Virus record (IMG/VR): IMGVR_UViG_2778261315_000003
Length of the DNA: 41,902 bases
Origin: a virus
Taxonomy: Duplodnaviria; Heunggongvirae; Uroviricota; Caudoviricetes
Strand: one strand, 5' to 3'
The position numbers and the translations under genes are program-made. This document shows positions 1,818-36,937 of this stretch, piece after piece. The notes under the pieces are model-generated. The model had not been told where the DNA came from. It did not search any database and saw only the letters and a program-made list of their open reading frames with translations. The number at the start of each line of letters is the position of its first letter. Positions within the stretch are counted from its first letter, which is position 1.

Positions 1818-1964
1818 CATTCATAGTACAGGGTTCAAATCATTCCCACTCAATTATTTACGACAATCATAACCAATTGAGTGATAACATTTTTCCAAAA
1901 CTTCATTTTTCTAGTACCGTTTTATATACCGTCACCGGAAATCAGTACCATGAAAAATGCCATG

Positions 1965-2447
1965 CTATCTGGTCAGGGTGTCGTACTGTTTTTCGCAGAC
2001 TCTTCCGGCTTCGGCTGCCCGGTCAGCATACTCTGCCAGTTGTCTGTTTCTCTCGAGAGATTTGCTGAGCACGTCGGCAAGCAAAACTCCGGTGTCTGCG
2101 GCTGACGTCCCAGCGCCGACAATGGCGTTATACTGCCTGAGCTGCTCACGGATGGCAAAGAGTTGTTGCTGCAACCGGCCAGCGCGAGCGGCAGCATCAA
2201 GAGCATCATTGCGCGCCTGGTCGATCCTCTGCTGCGCTTCACGTTCATTGATCGATTTCTCCTGTTCGTAGTGCTGACGAACTATCTCATCTTCAGCTTT
2301 GCGGTCTTCCTTCGCCTGCGCATACCCGGCATCGTACTGACGACTGCCGTGTGCATTCCAGGCTACAACTCCTGATATGACCAGAACAGCAAGCATCGCC
2401 ATGATAACCAACTGTTTCCAGTATGCTTTTGCGAATGCCCAGATCAT
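1965..2447 (-). CDS. Rz-like i-spanin (inner-membrane spanin)
   Basis: 160 aa, N-terminal TM helix then charged coiled-coil; directly downstream of endolysin with ATGA-type overlap; contains embedded lipoprotein ORF in another frame. Confidence 0.6.
1973..2209 (-). CDS. Rz1-like o-spanin, embedded in Rz in alternate frame
   Basis: ORF 1973..2248 contains [14 protein letters not shown] lipobox; start placed at internal Met (2209); Pro-containing short mature peptide, fully nested in Rz gene. Confidence 0.55.
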   Translation of the reverse strand: MMLLMLPLALAGCSNNSLPSVSSSGSITPLSALGRQPQTPEFCLPTCSANLSRETDNWQSMLTGQPKPEESAKNSTTP

Positions 2448-3073
2448 ACCGCCAGCACCTTACTGGCAGTGACGTACCGCGCGCGCCGGTCGTCGATGCC
2501 ATTCCTGCCACCATTGATAATCAGAGTTACACGTGCAATATCGCCGGTATACTTCATGCAACCTTTGCTGGAGAAGAACCACGCCGCGCTACGAGCCGCG
2601 TATTCGTCCTGCGCCAACAGTTCAGGATTCTCCAGCAGGTCAACTTTCAGACCGTTTCCACAGTCACGATAGTTATTCAAACCGGTAATCTGGATAAGCC
2701 CGCGCCCACGGTAATTCCAGCCATCACCAGGGGCATTGTTCCCCATGCGTTTGCTGTACACCAGATTTGCGATCGCGCGCTGGCGCTCGAGTGGCAATGG
2801 TGGTTCACCAGCACGGCGACCAAGTGCATTAGCCTGCCCCTGAGTGAGACGCCCAGCCCGAACGAAGTTAGCCAATCCGGTTACGCTGTAGTTGAAATTT
2901 TCCTGCAACCGGGTGAAGCCTCCAGACTCATGCCCGACCTGAGCAATAAACATTGCCTGATCTTCTGGTTTGCTGATACCAAACTCTTTCATCGCAGAAG
3001 TTATATGCGAGAACCAGCGAGCGGCCAGTTCCTCGCTGATACCAGCAGCTCGCTGGAATTGTTTAATCTCCAT
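2444..3073 (-). CDS. endolysin, glycoside hydrolase family 19 (chitinase-like)
   Basis: 209 aa; motifs [30 protein letters not shown] typical of GH19 phage lysins. Confidence 0.85.
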
Positions 3074-4168: not shown

Positions 4169-7144
4169 TTACATTGACATTAATATAAACATGGATAATT
4201 CATCATAGCGAATTCCGTATCGTCCTCCTGCTTTTTTTACAAGAATCATATTTCCTGTTTTATATTGAGAATAAATTTTCTCACCTGTATCAGGATCTGT
4301 GCTCTCTTCAGTTATCACCTCTTCATCCCATACGTCAGGCCATTCATCGTAACACCAAAAAGCATATTGCTCAGGATTTAAACCATGCTTTCTAAGAATA
4401 TCCCCTACGGTTTGAGCGCCAACGCCAAAATGATACCTGGACGACTCAATTCCTTTGTGATTAATTGAGTCATTAAATTTAAATTTATAGATGACTGACT
4501 TTATTTCAATAGCGGCATCACGCTCTGCATTAAGAATATCATATCTTGTTTTAAGAGTTTCATCTGATGTATTGATTGACCCGGTTCCTGCATAAATAAC
4601 AGAGCATCTGTTTGATGGCTGTCCAATAGCTTTAACATTATCATCAACAGGAGCTATTTTATTAGCATCTGCCAACCACCAGTCTGTTCCATCAGCGTGA
4701 CCGATTCTTACTCTTATCCCACTTCTAATATTTAAACTTCCAGTATTACTCTGTAAATTACAATCTCCTGACGTTGGTCCAAGCAGTACAGTTTTACCAA
4801 CACCACATACTACTCTGGCATTTCCTTTTTGTGATACGAGTCTTGACTCACCTCCTGACTGCTCAGGAAGAGATTTATGGTCTATAAATGCATCGCGGGG
4901 GTTAAATACACCGTCTCCAGAATTATATCTTCCTCCTGTATAGTTGTTAAATACAGGACCCCAGTCAACGCCATTGCCTTCAGAGCACCCGACCATTCTA
5001 AGCACTCGCGTATTCCCTGCTGCATATGGTAATGAGCTTGTTGATTGCCGGGAAGCTATCATACGTGCTCCATAACCAATAGCATTACCACCATTTATAG
5101 TTACATATGCTTGCTGGCTTTCGAAATATGTACTGTAAAAGTTCATATTTCCACAGTCATGCAGATGAATAAGAACATCATCCCATCCCTGAATGGTTCC
5201 CGCATGTACCTGTACACCGCGAACTGGTTCCCCTGAAACCTCCATACACTCTGATGGTCGGCTGAATGGCTGAGACAGGTATTGCGATGTGGCAAGCAGA
5301 TGTGTGTGGTGATACAGGCTGGTAATGTAGCAATCGAAAAATTGCGTTCCCGCCATACCAAAGTTATCTATGTCATTTCGCCGTATAGTAGAACCTACTG
5401 TTGCCTCAGAAGCGTTAGACACTCCAGTAAATACTAACTTATCACCGGATACGGATAATCCTGAATAAGTGAAATTCCTGCCTCCAGATCTTAAAACCCC
5501 GGACGTTTCGAAGGTGTGGCTTGCTGACCATGGGATTTCGATAGTGCTGGACGTTACCGCTGTAATTCGGAATACATCATGGGCGCGGATCGAAACACCC
5601 TTGAATCCCTGGAATCTACAGTGATAATAGTTTTCATCCTCGCCCTGAGCGGCCAGCGTGCCAGATACAGGAATGTTCGTTTTTAAAAGTGCCGTCTTGC
5701 GCCAGTATCCAACCACCTGCAAATTGCGGTATTCATTGCCAAAAGACGCACGTGACCAAATACCTACATCCCACTCATCGCCAAGACCGGTATTTGCAAT
5801 GTCTTTATAACCATCCAGCCCATTGAAATATGGAACAATACGAAAGTTCTCAAGGCGAACACATCCTGTCTCTGGCATCAATATTGCGGCAGAGAATGGT
5901 TTAAGCGTGGCTCTTGTAGCCCCATTAGCATCACCGTTAGTAAAATCCAATAAATCATATGATGACGCAGGTGCCGTTGTTGTATACGGGTCTTCGGAAG
6001 ATGGATTAGAAACCACACCACCACTAACATCCATATTAGAAACACAATCTACAGTATATTTTTTATTTCCTACACCGTACATCAGGAATGTGGTCCCTGT
6101 GGTAATATCAGGAGCAAATGTTGCAGTATATCCAGAGACCCATTTGCCCACACCAAGACCAATTATCCCACCACCAGAAACAGGTGTTAACGTATCCGTT
6201 ATTACATACGCATTATCAGTACCATAAATAACCTTTCCTGTGTTAATGGCAGCTTGCCACGCGGCCCAGTCTATTGACTGAGATAATGAGTCAACAAAAG
6301 GATATAAGGATTTTGCTTCAGAAATTGAAGAAAACCTCTCAGATAATGGATGATATTTCCCATCCCCAATTGCTCCGAATTGTTTTACATTTAAGAAAAG
6401 AGCATTGTTTTCATGCTGAGTTATAGTTACAGCCCCGGCAAATGGCTGCCTTACACCAATTAATGCATCACCTTTTCCTTCTCCTGCGCTAGATAATTGC
6501 AGAAGAACATCTGCGGCACTGCCAGAAGGCACAGGTACACCTATAGGTTTACCATTGACGATACCAATGACAGTTTCTTCCAGTAAATGAACTGGAGGAA
6601 GTGGTTCAATAAAATTATCTGGAACCCGTAATGTCCTGTTAATATTCACATTAACAATATTATCAACATAATTCTTTGTAGCTGCATCTTGAGGCTTGGA
6701 AGGATCGCGCAAATTGCGGATGTAATTATTCAAAGCATCGTAATAGTTTGCCACAAATGATGGCTTGCGCAGCGCCAGGCTAAACCAACTGCGGACTTGC
6801 TGTATCAGCATCGTCAGCTTATCTAACGCGTCTTCATGCACCTCAGCGAAAAACTTTCCCTGATTTCGCAGATCAGTTTCCTGCGTAACTGGTAGCTCTC
6901 GTGATATAGAAATCTGATAACCGTTAGCTAACGCCTTCGACAGAATTACATTACCGCCATTATATCCACCAGCCCCTGTGACAGTGTAATCAGTATCAAG
7001 AGCCAGCACAGCGATATTTTCGTCAAGGTCAACCACCTGTACTGCCAGATCAGATTCCTTGAAAACCCTAAAGGTATACGGAAATGATGTCGTAACGCCG
7101 TTACCTGTGTATTCGTTGTGGTCAACTTCGGTTGAGACCGTCAT
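4169..7144 (-). CDS. tailspike / tail fiber with conserved N-terminal anchor and C-terminal intramolecular chaperone-like domain
   Basis: 991 aa; N-terminus YTGNGVTTSFPYTFRVF typical of podovirus fibre/spike anchors; Gly/Ser/Thr/Asn-rich central beta-rich region; C-terminal tail (...SDETLKTRYDILNAERD...HFGVGAQ...YDELSMF) resembles peptidase-S74-type chaperone domain. Confidence 0.8.
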   Translation of the reverse strand: MTVSTEVDHNEYTGNGVTTSFPYTFRVFKESDLAVQVVDLDENIAVLALDTDYTVTGAGGYNGGNVILSKALANGYQISISRELPVTQETDLRNQGKFFAEVHEDALDKLTMLIQQVRSWFSLALRKPSFVANYYDALNNYIRNLRDPSKPQDAATKNYVDNIVNVNINRTLRVPDNFIEPLPPVHLLEETVIGIVNGKPIGVPVPSGSAADVLLQLSSAGEGKGDALIGVRQPFAGAVTITQHENNALFLNVKQFGAIGDGKYHPLSERFSSISEAKSLYPFVDSLSQSIDWAAWQAAINTGKVIYGTDNAYVITDTLTPVSGGGIIGLGVGKWVSGYTATFAPDITTGTTFLMYGVGNKKYTVDCVSNMDVSGGVVSNPSSEDPYTTTAPASSYDLLDFTNGDANGATRATLKPFSAAILMPETGCVRLENFRIVPYFNGLDGYKDIANTGLGDEWDVGIWSRASFGNEYRNLQVVGYWRKTALLKTNIPVSGTLAAQGEDENYYHCRFQGFKGVSIRAHDVFRITAVTSSTIEIPWSASHTFETSGVLRSGGRNFTYSGLSVSGDKLVFTGVSNASEATVGSTIRRNDIDNFGMAGTQFFDCYITSLYHHTHLLATSQYLSQPFSRPSECMEVSGEPVRGVQVHAGTIQGWDDVLIHLHDCGNMNFYSTYFESQQAYVTINGGNAIGYGARMIASRQSTSSLPYAAGNTRVLRMVGCSEGNGVDWGPVFNNYTGGRYNSGDGVFNPRDAFIDHKSLPEQSGGESRLVSQKGNARVVCGVGKTVLLGPTSGDCNLQSNTGSLNIRSGIRVRIGHADGTDWWLADANKIAPVDDNVKAIGQPSNRCSVIYAGTGSINTSDETLKTRYDILNAERDAAIEIKSVIYKFKFNDSINHKGIESSRYHFGVGAQTVGDILRKHGLNPEQYAFWCYDEWPDVWDEEVITEESTDPDTGEKIYSQYKTGNMILVKKAGGRYGIRYDELSMFILMSM

Positions 7145-7248
7145 GTTAAATCTCCAGATAGTCGCAGCACCCGTTGCGCCGCATATCTGGTTATTCTATT
7201 ACCTGGAAAACCACATATGGATATAAAGGCTGTAAATACGAATAGATA

Positions 7249-7263
7249 TTACCTTTCAGGTAA
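7249..7263. promoter_or_regulatory. palindromic operator-like site TTACCTTTCAGGTAA
   Basis: Perfect TTACC-N5-GGTAA; intergenic between tailspike start and divergent small gene. Confidence 0.6.
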
Positions 7264-7339
7264 TTTGCAAAACGTGCTGGATAGCAAACAAATTATTTGC
7301 TACTGTATAAATATACAGTTATTGCATGGAGAAGATAAG

Positions 7340-7597
7340 ATGCAGCAGTATCACTATCCACTGGAAGACGGATTTACCGAAAGGATTCACACGCCGGGAG
7401 GCGTCAGGTCACTGGTGGAGGGATCGCACTTGATGAAATTACTCCGGGATCTCGATAAGGATGGATTTAATGTCGATGGCCCACTTGCCGAACTGACTGC
7501 ACTGATTAACTACGTCACCAGCTCACAGATGTCTATGCGGGATCTGCAAACACATCTCGACTATTGTGCCGAACAATTACGAAAACAAACCCGGTAA
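7340..7597 (+). CDS. small protein paralogous to the C-terminal domain of the Bro-N protein
   Basis: Start moved to internal Met with GGAG RBS, because ORF 7217.. overlaps the operator; roughly 40% identity by eye to the Bro protein C-terminus (IH.P.GV..L.E.S.LM.LL..L..DG..V.G..AELT...Y...RD.QTH..Y). Confidence 0.5.
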   Translation: MQQYHYPLEDGFTERIHTPGGVRSLVEGSHLMKLLRDLDKDGFNVDGPLAELTALINYVTSSQMSMRDLQTHLDYCAEQLRKQTR

Positions 7598-7619
7598 ATT
7601 TAAAGGCCGCAAGAGCGGC

Positions 7620-8348
7620 CTATCGTTTCGCTTTGTGCTCATCCCAGCACGTTTTGCACCATGCCATTAAGCCGTCCGCATTTTGATTATTAGGGTAAAA
7701 GCTGGTTCGTTTTCTGCGGACATTACAAATTGGGCACCACTTCATATGGCGTGTATTCTTTGGGCCATCGAGACACCTTGCACACCATTTAGTCAATCCA
7801 TCTGGATTTTTTGACGATTTCCTGAATTTTTCATATGGAAGGTTTATTCTGCATCGCAAGCACTGCTTGCTACCACTTGAAACTCTGTTAGCTGATTCTT
7901 CTTTTGGCGGCGATACAGAAGGTATTCTTGCTGGCTCTGATATTGCCTGAGGTGCTTTTTTAGATGACTGAGACGATATGTCATCACCAGGGAATCTTCC
8001 ATGATATGCCGGACGCGTTGACACTCCAGGTGGAATCTCAGCTGTAAACGGCTTTGGCTGAATCAGTTGCCTCTCTTTTGCTAACTCCTGCTGTTTATAA
8101 TATGTCTGGATTACCGCACTATCATAAGCAGGAGGTGCGGAAATATTAGGCGCATTACCTCCAGTTTTTTGAAACTGAGTAGAGGTGTGTTCTATCACCT
8201 GTGTACGATTAATCGTTATCTCCCCATCTTCGGTCTTTATCGTTTTGTTATGATTAACGACCGTACGATCAGAGATCTTAGTCTTGTTCTGGTTGATAAC
8301 GTAAATAATCACCGCAACCACACCAACAACTATCCAGAAAACTTCCAT
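7620..8348 (-). CDS. membrane-anchored protein with Pro-rich linker and tandem C4 zinc-ribbon-like repeats
   Basis: 242 aa; N-terminal TM FWIVVGVVAVIIYVI; repeated C-x2-C ... NPDGL..WC..C units near C-terminus; own promoter region with two operators upstream. Confidence 0.6.
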   Translation of the reverse strand: MEVFWIVVGVVAVIIYVINQNKTKISDRTVVNHNKTIKTEDGEITINRTQVIEHTSTQFQKTGGNAPNISAPPAYDSAVIQTYYKQQELAKERQLIQPKPFTAEIPPGVSTRPAYHGRFPGDDISSQSSKKAPQAISEPARIPSVSPPKEESANRVSSGSKQCLRCRINLPYEKFRKSSKNPDGLTKWCARCLDGPKNTRHMKWCPICNVRRKRTSFYPNNQNADGLMAWCKTCWDEHKAKR

Positions 8349-8368
8349 TGCTTTTCCTCACAATAACA

Positions 8369-8383
8369 TTACCTTAAAGGTAA
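8369..8383. promoter_or_regulatory. palindromic operator-like site TTACCTTAAAGGTAA
   Basis: Perfect TTACC-N5-GGTAA, 21 bp upstream of the 7620..8348 gene start. Confidence 0.6.
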
Positions 8384-8461
8384 TATCTTGCTTTCAGGTG
8401 ATCAAGCGTTAAACGCAATCAACCAAATACGGTTGATTTTAATGTTTCTTCGCGCTTATCA

Positions 8462-8476
8462 TTACCTTTACGGTAA
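8462..8476. promoter_or_regulatory. palindromic operator-like site TTACCTTTACGGTAA
   Basis: Perfect TTACC-N5-GGTAA in the divergent intergenic region between the 7620..8348 and Bro genes. Confidence 0.6.
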
Positions 8477-8743
8477 ATTTACATCGCACTCCTCTTGTGC
8501 CATAGTAATCGGGCACTGGCAAAATCCAGTGCCGGGATTGGTCTCCCGGATTACTACAGAGGCACATATGCCGCATAAGCGGTTTTTTTATGTGTAAAGC
8601 GCACCTATTCTATGGTGGGCTGTGTGGGGGCACCGAAAGGTGCGCCGGGTTCCTTTGTAGCCGGTAAGACCAACTCTGCACAGTTCACCACCATCTGATT
8701 GGTCTCAGCGGTGGTGATTAACCTAACTACAAAGGTGATCGCC

Positions 8744-9436
8744 ATGAATACCAAACCTTCCATCTTTTCCTTTGAGTCATCCTGCCAGATCCGTATGTTC
8801 ATGATTGACGGAGAACCTTGGTTTGTCACCAAAGATGTGTGCAATGCTTTGAATATTGATGTTACACAAGCGAGAAAACTTGATAAAAAAGGCTGGAACA
8901 AAAAGGGGCTGTATTCAATACAGACCCCTGGTGGAATACAAGAACTATCCATCGTTTCAGAATCAGGTCTCTACATCCTTATTCTGCGTTGCAAAGAGGC
9001 AATGACTGAAGGAACGAGAGCATTCAGATTTCTTGAATGGGTTACAGGTGAGGTTCTTCCTCAGATCCGCCGCACCGGAAGTTACATTAAAAACTCGCTC
9101 CCGCAGGAAGAACGCATAAAGATGGTTGCCGACCAGGTAGCCAACGCCACGGCGTCAGCAGTAATGCAGGCGATGAAGATAGAGAACAAAACCTACAGTG
9201 CCCCACTGAAGCCCGGCTACCGCAGCCTGATTCATTCTCCGTCTGGTGTTCTCGGCCTGACGGAGAACTCACTGCTGATGAATCTGCTGAACCAGTTACA
9301 GGACGACGGGCACGACGTATCGGGCGCGGCGGCGGAGCTGACCACCATGTTCTGTTACATCGTTGGTGTGAGCAAATGCCTGCGTGATATCCAGACACAC
9401 GCAGAGTACATCAATGACAAGGCAGGGTTCTTCTGA
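8744..9436 (+). CDS. Bro-N domain protein, putative antirepressor
   Basis: Bro-N signature FSFE...IRMFMIDGEPWFVTKDVCNALNI...TPGGIQ...SESGLYILILR...FLEWVTGEVLPQIRRTGSY; start at Met 8744 with AGGTGA RBS. Confidence 0.8.
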   Translation: MNTKPSIFSFESSCQIRMFMIDGEPWFVTKDVCNALNIDVTQARKLDKKGWNKKGLYSIQTPGGIQELSIVSESGLYILILRCKEAMTEGTRAFRFLEWVTGEVLPQIRRTGSYIKNSLPQEERIKMVADQVANATASAVMQAMKIENKTYSAPLKPGYRSLIHSPSGVLGLTENSLLMNLLNQLQDDGHDVSGAAAELTTMFCYIVGVSKCLRDIQTHAEYINDKAGFF

Positions 9437-9521
9437 CGGGCGGCGGCACATGGATGTGCCTACAATTATCAATAATTGTTTACACTCGTTGCAGTTAAAA
9501 GCATTATACTCATGTTTAAAA

Positions 9522-9536
9522 TTACCCGATTGGTAA
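9522..9536. promoter_or_regulatory. palindromic operator-like site TTACCCGATTGGTAA
   Basis: Perfect TTACC-N5-GGTAA, 22 bp upstream of the 9558 start codon. Confidence 0.6.
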
Positions 9537-9557
9537 AGTCGATTGGTTGAGGTTCAT

Positions 9558-9884
9558 ATGAGCAGAAGATATGTCAAGGAGCTGGCTATAGAGTCTGGCA
9601 CCCCTTTGGGTATCGTTCCTGGCTCCAACTATGCCAAGGCTTTAAACCGAGACTCTGTCGTCAAAGTTATATCAAGAGACATGAATATGGTCGGAGACGA
9701 TCTCAGACGGTCAGAAAATCGTGTTTATGCTGAATATATAGTAAAGAACGGAAAAAAAATTGCAGCGCCTGCTGGCGGAAAATGGGCAATAGTGACAGGG
9801 AAAAACTCAAATGCAAGAGGAAAACCAGAAGCTAAAGGAATGTCCTTCGACAAATATGCAAAAATCTATTGGGCAACCAAGTGA
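9558..9884 (+). CDS. hypothetical basic protein (about 108 aa)
   Basis: ORF with GAGGT RBS; Lys/Arg-rich; first gene of an operator-controlled two-gene cassette. Confidence 0.45.
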   Translation: MSRRYVKELAIESGTPLGIVPGSNYAKALNRDSVVKVISRDMNMVGDDLRRSENRVYAEYIVKNGKKIAAPAGGKWAIVTGKNSNARGKPEAKGMSFDKYAKIYWATK

Positions 9885-10359
9885 TAACGAAGAAACTGAG
9901 TTCGAGGAAGTTGAGGAAGGGCTAAGTAACGAGATCATTCAACACCCAGATGCCTTCACAAGAGTTCTTGATCGCCCTGAAATTCAGGAGATAGTTGTCG
10001 CTCACCATGCGTTTCAGGGTCCGCTTCCTCCCCCCTATCTGCTTCGCGGGTATCAGGATATTTTACCTGATGCCCCCGAACGCATCTTCCAGCTGACGGA
10101 GAAGGAGTTTGCTCACCGCCAGAAAATGGAGGAAAAGGCACTTGACGGGGCTATTAATAGAGATAAACGTGGGCAGTGGTTTGGCCTGAGTGCAACTATT
10201 TTTACAGTAGCTTGTGCAACATTATTAGGTTTAACAGGTCATGAAGTTCTAGCTGGCACAGTGATCGGTACAGTTGTTGCAGTGGCTGGTATTTTCGTTC
10301 TTAGACAAAAACCAAGCATCAAGAAGAAATCTGAAGACAACAAACCTGAAGAAAAGTAA
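9856..10359 (+). CDS. membrane protein, DUF2335-like (2 C-terminal TM helices)
   Basis: Acidic N-terminal region; motif HHAFQGPLPPPYLLRGYQDILPDAPERIF as recalled for DUF2335; two TM helices near C-terminus; start could be 9811 or 9856. Confidence 0.55.
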   Translation: MQKSIGQPSDNEETEFEEVEEGLSNEIIQHPDAFTRVLDRPEIQEIVVAHHAFQGPLPPPYLLRGYQDILPDAPERIFQLTEKEFAHRQKMEEKALDGAINRDKRGQWFGLSATIFTVACATLLGLTGHEVLAGTVIGTVVAVAGIFVLRQKPSIKKKSEDNKPEEK

Positions 10360-10382
10360 GCCCGCGCTGCGGGCTTTTTTGT
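10359..10382 (+). terminator. rho-independent terminator
   Basis: GCCCGC-GCTG-CGGGC followed by TTTTTTG immediately after the stop codon. Confidence 0.6.
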
Positions 10383-10452
10383 GGGCGAAACAAAAGTCAG
10401 TGCTACACTCATTGACGCCACATTGAGGTGGTTTATAGATGGAAATTTCACA

Positions 10453-10614
10453 ATGAAAAAAGCATTTGCTGCACTGTTCGTTTTGTTGTCTCTGGTAGCT
10501 TCAACTCAGGCCTTTGCCGGTCGTTGTCAGCACGACAGCGATACTGCCGCTGACGGCTCCCGCTGCGGTGGGCATTCTGCGGATTCCCGCCCGGGCGGCG
10601 GTGGCATTCGTTAA
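10453..10614 (+). CDS. small secreted Cys-containing peptide (about 53 aa)
   Basis: Start at internal Met MKKAFAALFVLLSLVASTQAFA (signal peptide), Gly/Ser/Asp-rich mature part with 2 Cys; candidate TTGACG-16-TATAGA promoter upstream; terminators on both sides. Confidence 0.45.
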   Translation: MKKAFAALFVLLSLVASTQAFAGRCQHDSDTAADGSRCGGHSADSRPGGGGIR

Positions 10615-10645
10615 AAACAAGGCCGCGAAAGCGGCCTGTTTGATC
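10612..10645. terminator. bidirectional terminator between convergent genes
   Basis: GGCCGC-GAAA-GCGGCC hairpin flanked by A-run on one side and T-run on the other. Confidence 0.55.
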
Positions 10646-11495
10646 ACTGTGCAGTTTTCGCTGATCGATTTTCAGCTCTAAATTCAAGAACCGTTTCAAT
10701 ATTTCTTTCCTTCAGCATATCAATAACATTTTTATTCATTTGACTATCACTGGTTAATAACTGGTAAACGTTGCTTCTCTCTTTATCAGAGTTTTCTTTA
10801 ACAGCTGCTTTGCATGCCAAATGCTTATTGAAATTTTCTACATCGCTAGTACAGGAATTTACGGCTGCTGATGAAATATCAGACGCTGAAGAAACACCGT
10901 CATCCAAACGTTTTATAGCATTTTCTATACATGAGTTAAGGGAATAAACGACAACTGAGCGATACCCTTCAGACGCACACCATTCTAAATTTCTTGAAGG
11001 ATCGAGTGGTTTTACTTCGCTGGATTGAATTAACTTGTCAAAAACTGACTTATATTCAATCTGTTTTTTATCTATAGCCCATACTTCAGTAGCTGATTTA
11101 TAATTCCCCGTATGCCTATTAACATCAAATCCATGTTTTATAAGCAAATCTGCCCATGAAAGATTTATTGATTCATTGTTATGAGGCCATTTTCCTGTCA
11201 GAACCGCCCCCATAGACCCCATATATCCGCCATATGATGGTATAGCACCATGGCTCAGTAACTTCTCTGCAACCACAGGGCAATTAATTACATAAGAGGC
11301 GTAAAGCCCATTCCATAAAGCCCCTCTATAGTAATCGCCACGATTAGGTTCTTTTAAGTCGATAGCCTTTGATAATTGTTCGCACGTTTTGCATGCATCA
11401 AAGTTATCCTTATTGCATTGCAATGAACTGGCAGCTGTAGGATTTACAGAGACTATTGAAAGCACTATGCCAAAAAACAAATTTATTTTTTTCAT
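10644..11495 (-). CDS. AT-rich secreted protein of unknown function (moron), possibly ankyrin-repeat-like
   Basis: 283 aa; N-terminal signal peptide MKKINLFFGIVLSIVSVNPTAA; visibly lower G+C than neighbours; segments ...AEKLLSHGA... and ...ADLLIKHGFDVN... loosely fit ankyrin consensus; start 1 bp after the gp16-like stop. Confidence 0.7.
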   Translation of the reverse strand: MKKINLFFGIVLSIVSVNPTAASSLQCNKDNFDACKTCEQLSKAIDLKEPNRGDYYRGALWNGLYASYVINCPVVAEKLLSHGAIPSYGGYMGSMGAVLTGKWPHNNESINLSWADLLIKHGFDVNRHTGNYKSATEVWAIDKKQIEYKSVFDKLIQSSEVKPLDPSRNLEWCASEGYRSVVVYSLNSCIENAIKRLDDGVSSASDISSAAVNSCTSDVENFNKHLACKAAVKENSDKERSNVYQLLTSDSQMNKNVIDMLKERNIETVLEFRAENRSAKTAQ

Positions 11496-26930: not shown

Positions 26931-26945
26931 TTACCTTTCAGGTAA
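26931..26945. promoter_or_regulatory. palindromic operator-like site TTACCTTTCAGGTAA
   Basis: Perfect TTACC-N5-GGTAA upstream of the head operon; identical to site at 7249. Confidence 0.6.
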
Positions 26946-27267: not shown

Positions 27268-27344
27268 GTGGCATTAGCTCAGTTGGACAGAGCAACCGCC
27301 TTCTAAGCGGTTGGTCGCAGGTTCGAATCCTGCATGCCACGCCA
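27268..27344 (+). tRNA. tRNA-Arg (anticodon UCU)
   Basis: Cloverleaf folded by hand: acceptor GTGGCAT/ATGCCAC, D-arm GCTC..GAGC, anticodon stem ACCGC/GCGGT with loop CTTCTAA, T-arm GCAGG-TTCGAAT-CCTGC, discriminator G, encoded CCA. Confidence 0.9.
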
Positions 27345-36100: not shown

Positions 36101-36115
36101 TCACCCATAAGGTAA
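36101..36115. promoter_or_regulatory. operator-like site variant TCACCCATAAGGTAA
   Basis: One-mismatch variant in the repressor/cro intergenic region. Confidence 0.4.
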
Positions 36116-36131
36116 CAAAAATCAAGGATAG

Positions 36132-36146
36132 TTACCTATGAGGTGC
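36132..36146. promoter_or_regulatory. operator-like site variant TTACCTATGAGGTGC
   Basis: Two-mismatch variant, adjacent to the perfect site at 36149. Confidence 0.4.
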
Positions 36147-36148
36147 AT

Positions 36149-36163
36149 TTACCTGTTGGGTAA
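36149..36163. promoter_or_regulatory. palindromic operator-like site TTACCTGTTGGGTAA
   Basis: Perfect TTACC-N5-GGTAA in the divergent repressor/cro promoter region. Confidence 0.6.
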
Positions 36164-36218: not shown

Positions 36219-36803
36219 ATGAAAAGTATCCAGGACGTCCGCAGGCAAAATCTCAACGACTTGATCGACCGTGAATTCAATGGTGTTCAGACGCGGATGG
36301 CAGAAAAACTTGGAACTCAGGCAAATCTGGTAAACCGCTGGGCTCTTGGCAAGAAGGTTATCGGCGACCAGGTTGCGCGAAAAATTGAAGCTGCCGCCAA
36401 TAAACCCCGTAACTGGCTTGATATCGATCGCTCGCTTTCTCAGGAAGGTTTTCAGCCTGTCGGCCCAAGCGACATTGGTCAGCTGGCGGCTCACAACCTG
36501 GAACGCTGGATGAGCGAAAGCCGCGACCTTTCAACTCAGGGAAAACTTCACCGCGCATCCGGCGTCGCCCAGGTGACAATCAGCCGCCTGTTAAACAATG
36601 AGGTCAGTGTTTCCATTTCCACCCTGGAGAATGTTGCATCAGCATTCGGGCGTCACGGCTATGAATTACTGATTCACCCGCACGACCCTGCGACCATCAA
36701 CTATGACCGCTCGCGCTACGCATTGTTACCCGAAACCGAGAAAGCAAAGATCGAAAGTTATATTGAATTTGTCATCAACCAGAACGAAAAAAACAAACAA
36801 TAA
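36219..36803 (+). CDS. tandem-HTH (XRE-family) repressor, CI position, no peptidase domain
   Basis: 194 aa; two HTH-like segments (VQTRMAEKLGTQANLVNRWALGK and LHRASGVAQVTISRLLNNE); no S24/LexA-like C-terminal domain visible. Confidence 0.65.
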   Translation: MKSIQDVRRQNLNDLIDREFNGVQTRMAEKLGTQANLVNRWALGKKVIGDQVARKIEAAANKPRNWLDIDRSLSQEGFQPVGPSDIGQLAAHNLERWMSESRDLSTQGKLHRASGVAQVTISRLLNNEVSVSISTLENVASAFGRHGYELLIHPHDPATINYDRSRYALLPETEKAKIESYIEFVINQNEKNKQ

Positions 36804-36860: not shown

Positions 36861-36875
36861 TTACCTAATAGGTAA
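36861..36875. promoter_or_regulatory. palindromic operator-like site TTACCTAATAGGTAA
   Basis: Perfect TTACC-N5-GGTAA upstream of a TTGACA -35-like hexamer (36895..36900). Confidence 0.6.
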
Positions 36876-36922
36876 TTTTTTTAACTCATATCTATTGACA
36901 TCAAACCAAATACGCATAATTA

Positions 36923-36937
36923 TTACCTCAACGGTAA
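36923..36937. promoter_or_regulatory. palindromic operator-like site TTACCTCAACGGTAA
   Basis: Perfect TTACC-N5-GGTAA just downstream of the candidate -10 region and 20 bp before an RBS/ATG. Confidence 0.6.

Follow-up and report, generated by a model that had tools for sequence, protein, structure and literature searches.

Why would a temperate phage carry two versions of what appears to be one antirepressor domain, and which signals would release each of them? The question is raised by positions 7217-9436 of the IMG/VR virus record IMGVR_UViG_2778261315_000003 (Caudoviricetes), a stretch of 41,902 nt referred to below as the window, with positions numbered from its first letter. The window is a phiV10/epsilon15-like (Uetakevirus) temperate podophage, a prophage of Escherichia coli. 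The locus harbors two genes on the + strand, a small one, ant (7340..7597, 85 aa), and a larger one coding for a Bro-N protein (8744..9436, 230 aa). The answer which we consider probable is that the two antirepressors are built on a single domain, Ant, directed against the phage repressor Rep; the free copy would be gated by LexA, and the copy fused to Bro-N by an isrK/c4 RNA switch.

The similarity of the C-terminal regions of the two proteins was spotted by eye in the initial annotation of this DNA, and it withstands formal comparison. In BLASTP (7340..7594 vs. 8744..9433), residues 2-75 of the small protein aligned with residues 149-222 of the Bro-N protein without gaps, 32 of the 74 positions being identical (43%, E 2e-16), and all shared motifs named in that annotation fall within the alignment. 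Both proteins match PHROG 450 (E 7e-48 for the small protein and 5e-37 for the Bro-N protein) as well as the same PDB chain, 5D50_E (E 1.4e-46 over residues 2-84 and E 1.6e-13 over residues 149-225, respectively), and the small and the fused Ant domains have conserved core positions in common. A tblastn search of the whole window with either protein revealed just these two copies and no third. Both reading frames are present as initially annotated. They are not arranged divergently, as had been stated: both genes lie on the + strand with a minus-strand gene for a 242-aa protein (7620..8348) between them, and each diverges solely from its own minus-strand neighbor. A natural 84-aa protein, P0143, has an N-terminal half like the small Ant subtype and a C-terminal half like the fused subtype, which suggests recombination between the two paralogues.

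The small gene is the more readily interpreted of the two. Its product is 86.7% identical to the annotated ant product of Salmonella phage SPC32H, and its best structural match, chain E of PDB 5D50, is an “Anti-repressor protein” of 86 aa. The gene adjoins the tailspike gene, the same position as in SPC32H, and GGAG is found 8 nt upstream of its ATG. By homology, the small protein is the orthologue of SPC32H Ant; since it comes with the same upstream controls and Rep partner, the free-standing form is taken to be the canonical, functional one. The initial annotation considered a stand-alone effector domain unusual, yet the form of 85-86 aa is the characterized antirepressor of this phage lineage and the commonest one in the databases. 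This length was found in nearly all of the 120 database matches listed, and the Salmonella relatives SPC32H, SPN1S and epsilon15 hold the small form alone, without the Bro-N fusion. The start at 7217 assumed initially, an upstream ATG opening a 126-aa open reading frame (ORF), was rejected in favor of 7340, since the homologues are 85-86 aa long and the extension crosses the operator and the LexA box.

The alignment with SPC32H, phiV10 and TL-2011b extends over the 200 bp upstream of ant and takes in a LexA box and an operator at 7249. The LexA (SOS) box, TACTGTATAAATATACAGTT, occupies 7301..7320, with CTGT-N8-ACAG at 7303..7318. It is close to the consensus (written TACTGTATAAATATACAGT over 7301-7320); its core match, CTGTATAAATATACAG at 7303-7318, is conserved in SPC32H, and the box is kept in SPC32H, phiV10, TL-2011b and Tyrion. 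Strict CTGT-N8-ACAG matches number three in the window, the other two being devoid of the AT-rich core, and the scan of the window revealed no LexA box before the Bro-N operon. A promoter scan placed no -35/-10 pair of ant with confidence. In SPC32H (Kim and Ryu 2013, J Virol; Kim et al. 2016, PNAS), Rep reportedly stays uncleaved upon SOS induction and is inactivated by Ant, and LexA is reported to repress the ant promoter. Ant works as a tetramer, breaking the Rep tetramer (PMC9638917).

The larger gene codes for a 230-aa protein composed of a Bro-N domain (residues 16-106; Pfam PF02498, 51.4 bits vs. the cut-off of 25.6), a linker and the Ant-like C-terminal domain (residues ~149-225). The antirepressor nature proposed for it initially finds support. 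A TTG start at 8699 was rejected: the homologues are 230 aa long and the extension crosses regulatory sites. The fusion is widespread in Enterobacteriaceae: numerous full-length Bro-N::Ant-like proteins, 227-237 aa in length, come from E. coli, Salmonella, Citrobacter, Klebsiella, Enterobacter and others, and the E. coli, Enterobacter (Tyrion) and Klebsiella phages hold both Ant copies. A search of 1.84 billion representative proteins with the Ant-domain profile yielded as few as 64 clusters (at 50% identity), in which the domain occurs either alone (~85-98 aa) or C-terminally of one of four other domains, Bro-N, AntA, Phage_pRha or ORF6N. Hence, by these architectures, Ant is a narrow, lineage-specific effector joined to interchangeable N-terminal modules.

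In Pfam, there is no model for the Ant domain (the matches of DUF724 and P22_AR_N are below the threshold), and no NCBIfam model matched either antirepressor; because of this gap, both genes are under-annotated. Thus, RefSeq labels the small antirepressor a “hypothetical protein”, and the fused copy was a “BRO-N domain-containing protein” in 12/12 cases among the E. coli genomes listed. In phiV10, the Bro-N gene (phiV10 2311..2990) is frameshifted within the Ant-like domain, and its annotation is split into a 194-aa protein and a 29-aa ORF; the second antirepressor of this type phage may be inactive, or a sequence error may be present. Some phiV10-like prophages have a third Ant-domain gene (TL-2011b and HEMP4, with three tblastn places each). 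In another prophage located at guaA, this third gene codes for an AntA::Ant-like fusion (10001..10531) and lies beside the integrase gene, and a 194-aa helix-turn-helix protein is encoded at the rep position.

Comparison with close relatives indicates that the N-terminal module has been exchanged in the window. Over the Bro-N part (8740-9039), DNA identity to TL-2011b and to the phage vB_EcoP_ZX5 (hereafter, ZX5) is 52-67%, and from 9040 onwards it is 93-100%; the recombination joint at ~9040, at the motif WVTGEVLPQIRRTG, coincides with the end of the Bro-N domain, i.e., with a domain boundary. On the protein level, ZX5 ORF4 is 80% identical to the window Bro-N protein overall and 99% identical from about residue 100, while the identity of its Bro-N part is only ~55-60%, suggesting that modules were swapped near residue 100. 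Overexpression of ZX5 ORF4 decreased the prophage titer from 10^9 to 10^6 and the transcription of rep by 75% (PMC9782041). In the same paper, the lysogeny-related proteins named are ORF4, ORF12 and ORF21 only, and SPC32H is mentioned zero times (PMC9782041); the small ant gene is a “hypothetical protein” in the ZX5 record.

Structure prediction was informative for the N-terminal module. The AlphaFold2 model of the fusion, built on an 18-sequence alignment, has a mean predicted local distance difference test score (pLDDT) of 63 and is confident for the Bro-N domain only. Foldseek against the PDB related this domain to a baculovirus Bro-N-like structure, 4ye7 (probability 0.97), and weakly to the Mbp1 DNA-binding domain (APSES-like). 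The same search did not recover 5D50 and thus says nothing on the Ant-like domain.

What would control the fused copy, if not LexA? Upstream of the Bro-N gene, two structured RNAs were found in tandem. A probable promoter of the isrK-c4-antirepressor operon lies at 8478..8506 on the + strand (TTTACA-17-CATAGT with TG before the -10, by the promoter scan), and its -10 element ends 6 nt upstream of the match of the isrK model. The latter corresponds to an isrK-type small RNA (sRNA) with its own intrinsic terminator at 8570-8589 (8513..8589, +; Rfam RF01394, 74.7 bits vs. the gathering score of 50). In the same region, the c4-a1b1 model RF03163 reached 39.9 bits, short of its gathering score (46.7). 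Further downstream, a full-length c4-type antisense RNA follows (8608..8695, +; RF01695, 78.6 bits vs. the gathering score of 45).

The c4 RNA has two sets of prospective targets. Folding and complementarity suggest that its exposed loops are b' CCUUUGUAG (8652-8660) and a' AGACCAA (8667-8673). IsrK carries the c4 targets a1 TTGGTCT (8538-8544) and b1 CTACAGAGG (8554-8562). By complementarity, a second pair lies at 8699..8735 (+), a2 TTGGTCT (8699-8705) and b2 CTACAAAGG (8727-8735). In RNA letters, a2 and b2 read UUGGUCU and CUACAAAGG; they are located just upstream of the Bro-N start codon, and b2 overlaps the Shine-Dalgarno sequence of the gene, AAAGGUGA. The c4 segments are also complementary to CUACAGAGG and UUGGUCU within isrK.

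The isrK-c4 cassette is conserved in phages of E. coli, Enterobacter and Klebsiella, and among six of them two c4 specificity types were discerned: one in the window, Tyrion and a Klebsiella phage, the other in TL-2011b, phiV10 and ZX5. Across the six phages, the c4 loops, the isrK sites and the sites near the ribosome-binding site (RBS) change in concert, AGACCAA/TTGGTCT (UUGGUCU in RNA) being replaced by ACGCCAA/TTGGCGT (UUGGCGU). The second pair behaves similarly: CCTTTGTAG/CTACAAAGG vs. CCTTTTAG/CTAAAAGG in DNA letters, or CCUUUGUAG/CUACAAAGG vs. CCUUUUAG/CUAAAAGG in RNA letters. Since the three elements covary, this is strong comparative evidence of a functional isrK/c4 switch.

No ORF separates c4 from the start codon of the Bro-N gene, and an icd-like coupled ORF is thus absent. 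A 28-codon ORF (8612..8698) overlaps c4, and among the phages compared its products are 15-35 aa long and read in differing frames; a search for an orf45/icd-like coupled ORF thus yielded only this one, unconserved in length and frame. In ZX5, an “ash family protein” coding sequence (1935..2048) lies mostly over the c4 RNA of that phage (1921..2006); it is probably an annotation artefact, because the equivalent ORF varies in frame and length from one relative to another.

The presumed target of both antirepressors is the product of rep (36219..36803, +), an SPC32H-type repressor matching chain A of 5D50, “Repressor”, over residues 1-190 (E 4e-42). It is 100% identical to the Rep of ZX5 and 42% identical to that of SPC32H. 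Rep is also the presumed binder of the palindrome TTACC-N5-GGTAA, which occurs 11 times in its exact form in the window vs. 0 in 100 shuffles. A cluster of these sites at 36101-36163 lies between rep and a divergent cro-like gene; two more, at 36861 and 36923 (cluster 36861-36937), surround a TTGACA...CATAAT promoter downstream of rep, and SPC32H has the same arrangement around its own rep. On the strength of this clustering in both phages, the motif is very probably the Rep operator.

Operators of this type adjoin both antirepressor genes. The exact palindromic site upstream of ant, TTACCTTTCAGGTAA (7249..7263), is located 38 bp upstream of the LexA box; its position and half-sites are kept in SPC32H, phiV10, TL-2011b and Tyrion, and TTTGCA follows it directly. 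Another exact site (8462..8476) abuts the -35 element of the isrK promoter. The geometry TTACC-N5-GGTAA-A-TTTACA-N17-CATAGT is kept in TL-2011b, ZX5, Tyrion and the Klebsiella phage, the N5 spacer varying freely; phiV10 retains the operator, with a different -35 region. Because both promoter regions carry a probable Rep operator, both antirepressor genes most likely belong to the Rep regulon, where Rep would act as a repressor. Thus, the operator control of the two genes claimed in the initial annotation stands as far as the adjoining sites are concerned, although the main controls, the LexA box and the isrK/c4 RNA switch, had been missed.

Further exact sites lie outside these two promoter regions. 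One (8369..8383) precedes the minus-strand gene of the 242-aa protein, with an identical site in TL-2011b, and one (9522..9536) lies downstream of the Bro-N gene, before the next gene (9558..9884). Rep-type sites at 26931, 30121/30139, 33806/33868, 35764, 36101-36163 and 36861/36923 extend over at least six further loci; the one at 26931 is the same 15-mer as that upstream of ant, and the pairs 33806/33868 and 36861/36923 are both spaced by 62 bp. Such a dispersed set recalls the many C1 operators of P1.

The effector co-occurs with its presumed target. The Ant domain was found in 35 records of the phage collection, all 35 of them among the 37 records with a Rep match. The fused domain diverges roughly in step with the co-resident Rep: the identities of the fused domain and Rep are, respectively, 96-100% and 98.5-100% in the E. 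coli phages, 79% and 78% in Tyrion, and 54% and 45% in the Klebsiella phages.

Taken together, these findings would fit the following mechanism. In the lysogen, LexA bound to the box at 7301-7320 would keep ant off; upon DNA damage, LexA would be cleaved and Ant made, and the Ant tetramer would dismantle the Rep tetramer, removing Rep from its operators as in SPC32H. An isrK-c4-ant operon would have the Bro-N::Ant-like gene as its final member. Of the transcripts started at the isrK promoter, most are expected to end at the isrK terminator, giving rise to the short sRNA, while the read-through RNA would carry c4, whose loops could pair with a2/b2 and cover the RBS of the Bro-N gene, so its translation would be blocked in the lysogen. 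IsrK, presenting the same targets as a1/b1, would titrate c4 and thereby turn the translation on, as reported for Gifsy-1 IsrK and AnrP; by this analogy, we infer that IsrK acts as an anti-c4. The Bro-N protein would then inactivate Rep via its Ant-like C-terminal domain, with Bro-N as the exchangeable N-terminal module; this presupposes that the fused domain binds the Rep of its own phage. If Rep represses both antirepressor promoters, its loss would be self-reinforcing, since both antirepressors are most likely in its regulon.

Several observations weigh against this scheme. With only ~40% identity to the cognate small Ant, the fused domain could differ from it in specificity. The experiment with ZX5 ORF4 was made with a GST-tagged protein overexpressed during infection, and what was reported is an effect, not Rep binding (PMC9782041). 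The AlphaFold2 monomer of the fusion is poor precisely in the C-terminal domain, with a pLDDT of 36-65 over the last 110 residues. The ant promoter is not assignable with confidence from the sequence, and the operator at the isrK promoter sits just upstream of the -35 element, its center being at about -44, where an activator could bind as well. Finally, the sequences of Ant and Rep track each other loosely: between E. coli and Salmonella phages, the small Ant retains an identity of 83-87% (87% vs. SPC32H), whereas that of the Reps is only 42%. Phylogeny may hence account for the parallel divergence of the fused domain. Either the surface of Rep that Ant recognizes is conserved, or ant and rep have been reshuffled as modules.

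The specificity issue leads to the alternative which survives best, though we regard it as doubtful, namely that the Bro-N::Ant-like protein works chiefly in trans or against immunity, targeting the Reps of related resident or superinfected prophages and contributing little to the induction of its own. P1 Ant, P22 Ant and Fels-1 FsoA exemplify antirepressors of this sort. Besides the ~40% identity, which fits another Rep specificity, the Bro-N operon has an operator for the phage repressor and no LexA box, reminiscent of FsoA, which is controlled by the phage repressor and acts on the repressor of another prophage (PMC3121763), and in P1 the classical anti-immunity functions are antirepressors under c4 control (PMC8201110). 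In addition, some relatives possess the third Ant-domain gene, and an E. coli genome may contain up to three matching places. Nevertheless, the phage on which the ZX5 orthologue acted has the same Rep as the window, and the parallel divergence of the fused domain and the co-resident Rep in E. coli, Enterobacter and Klebsiella phages speaks for an own-Rep target. The trans-acting role is, moreover, compatible with the two-input scheme.

It seems improbable that the Bro-N protein is instead a DNA-binding regulator in which the Ant-like domain merely serves for oligomerization and leaves Rep alone. The resemblance of Bro-N/KilA-N-type domains to DNA-binding ones, seen in the matches of the model to 4ye7 and weakly to Mbp1, invites this view, and so does the tetrameric state of Ant (PMC9638917). 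The Ant domain is, however, confined to phages of the collection also holding an SPC32H-type Rep; its occurrence behind four unrelated N-terminal modules indicates that the lineage-specific function resides in the C-terminal domain; and overexpression of ZX5 ORF4 lowered lysogeny (PMC9782041). The idea of the initial annotation that the small protein is a decoy or modulator of the Bro-N antirepressor, forming mixed oligomers or competing for Rep without inactivating it, is more improbable still and largely refuted by homology: mixed tetramers are conceivable given the tetrameric Ant (PMC9638917), the core positions common to both domains and the chimera-like P0143, but the small gene has a LexA-box promoter region of its own, its product is ~87% identical to the SPC32H Ant crystallized in the Rep-bound state (PDB 5D50) and described as a breaker of the Rep tetramer (PMC9638917), and its function cannot depend on a fusion which SPC32H, SPN1S and epsilon15 lack.

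Returning to the scheme of two antirepressors converging on Rep, a more speculative extension, which we hold unlikely as a whole, can be considered. Here, Ant would be a portable Rep-specific “warhead” mounted behind swappable modules and sensors; mixed tetramers of both antirepressors would integrate the DNA-damage and RNA-switch signals non-additively, and Rep bound at about -44 would activate the isrK promoter, keeping c4 supplied in the lysogen.

In the nucleotide comparison, positions 7100-9600 match Escherichia phage TL-2011b (95% identity over 83%), EC.W1-9, vB_EcoP_ZX5, phiV10 and others. The integrase gene lies at the window end, and a related prophage with the same early-gene order sits beside guaA, the GMP synthase gene, which is the attachment site given for ZX5 (PMC9782041). 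The region 7217-9436 finds a match in 542 of the 5,426 complete E. coli genomes (~10%), and in 107 of these at least 80% of it is covered. A tRNA gene is harbored inside the prophage (27268..27341, +; Rfam, 73.3 bits).

The minus-strand gene separating the two antirepressor genes (7620..8348) encodes a membrane-anchored protein of 242 aa (PHROG 6762, E 6e-150) that has a hydrophobic segment at its N-terminus and a pair of Cys-rich zinc-ribbon-like repeats and weakly resembles Stc1 and endonuclease VII-like zinc fingers. It is missing from phiV10, ZX5, Tyrion and SPC32H, and TL-2011b carries just a “similar to hypothetical protein” label. The gene is an inserted cargo between ant and the isrK cassette, outside the antirepressor pair; with a Rep-type operator immediately upstream of its start, it may be a Rep-controlled cargo (moron). 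A GC-rich hairpin at 7604..7621, scored on the minus strand in the terminator scan, is the probable terminator between the convergent ant and 242-aa genes. More cargo follows the Bro-N gene: 9558..9884 (+) for a PHROG 10654 protein, 9811..10359 (+) for a DUF2335 membrane protein and 10644..11495 (-) for a 283-aa PHROG 6118 protein. Upstream of the first two lie the operator at 9522 and, just ahead of it, promoter-like sites at 9479-9507 and 9495-9522. Overall, the block from ant to the conserved gene of a 1129-aa virion protein differs among relatives, and SPC32H has there only a 46-aa membrane protein.

As to novelty, every component of the locus is of a known kind: the SPC32H-type Rep/Ant/LexA switch, the modular Bro-N antirepressors and the c4/isrK RNA switch. 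Two points are apparently undescribed in the literature examined: that this common Bro-N antirepressor ends in a domain paralogous to Ant, whose structure has been solved, and that one phage holds two copies of one effector domain which answer to different inputs and presumably act on the same Rep. Through its C-terminal domain, a common class of Bro-N “antirepressors” is now connected with a solved antirepressor–repressor complex, which gives it a testable target (Rep) and mechanism. The scheme would also explain how DNA damage and, independently of SOS, an RNA switch could each induce phiV10-like prophages, some of which reside in enterohaemorrhagic (EHEC) and avian pathogenic (APEC) E. coli strains.

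Among the known systems, the Rep-Ant-LexA switch of SPC32H (PDB 5D50, 5D4Z) is the closest counterpart of the ant half of the locus. The two share the orthologous ant (87%) beside the tailspike gene, the LexA box, the upstream TTACC-N5-GGTAA site and a homologous Rep with the same operators. Unlike SPC32H, the window has a Rep only 42% identical to the SPC32H one and adds an RNA-controlled fused Ant copy, which SPC32H lacks. For the other half, vB_EcoP_ZX5 (PMC9782041) offers the orthologous Bro-N::Ant-like ORF4 downstream of the same isrK-c4 cassette, together with an identical Rep; it differs in the Bro-N part (~55-60% identical) and in the c4 specificity type.

The immI region of P1/P7 (c4 - icd - ant1/2, with a C1 operator) has a c4 of the same Rfam family (RF01695) and an antirepressor product (PMC8201110). 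The upstream a1/b1 and downstream a2/b2 targets, with the downstream pair over an RBS, and the operator of the primary repressor at the promoter, predicted in the window, are likewise shared. In contrast to immI, the window is devoid of an icd-like coupled ORF, and its c4 would cover the RBS of the antirepressor itself; furthermore, its a1/b1 targets lie on an isrK sRNA with a terminator, its antirepressor is of the Bro-N::Ant-like type, and the whole is carried by an integrated podophage.

The isrK-orf45(STnc1160)-anrP operon of Gifsy-1 displays the same succession of isrK, a c4-like RNA and an antirepressor-like gene, with IsrK complementary to the downstream RNA. There, transcripts reading through the isrK terminator form an mRNA that is not translated, the c4-like STnc1160 is processed out of it, and the short IsrK turns on the translation of AnrP (PMC4825925). 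Unlike in Gifsy-1, the short ORF overlapping c4 is unconserved in the window and its relatives, and the repressor belongs to a different family. In the window, both antirepressors share a homologous effector domain. The two-input design as such, i.e., a LexA-gated and an IsrK-gated antirepressor in one prophage, has its precedent in Gifsy-1, where the small LexA-controlled antirepressor GfoA is encoded along with AnrP (PMC4825925, PMC3121763).

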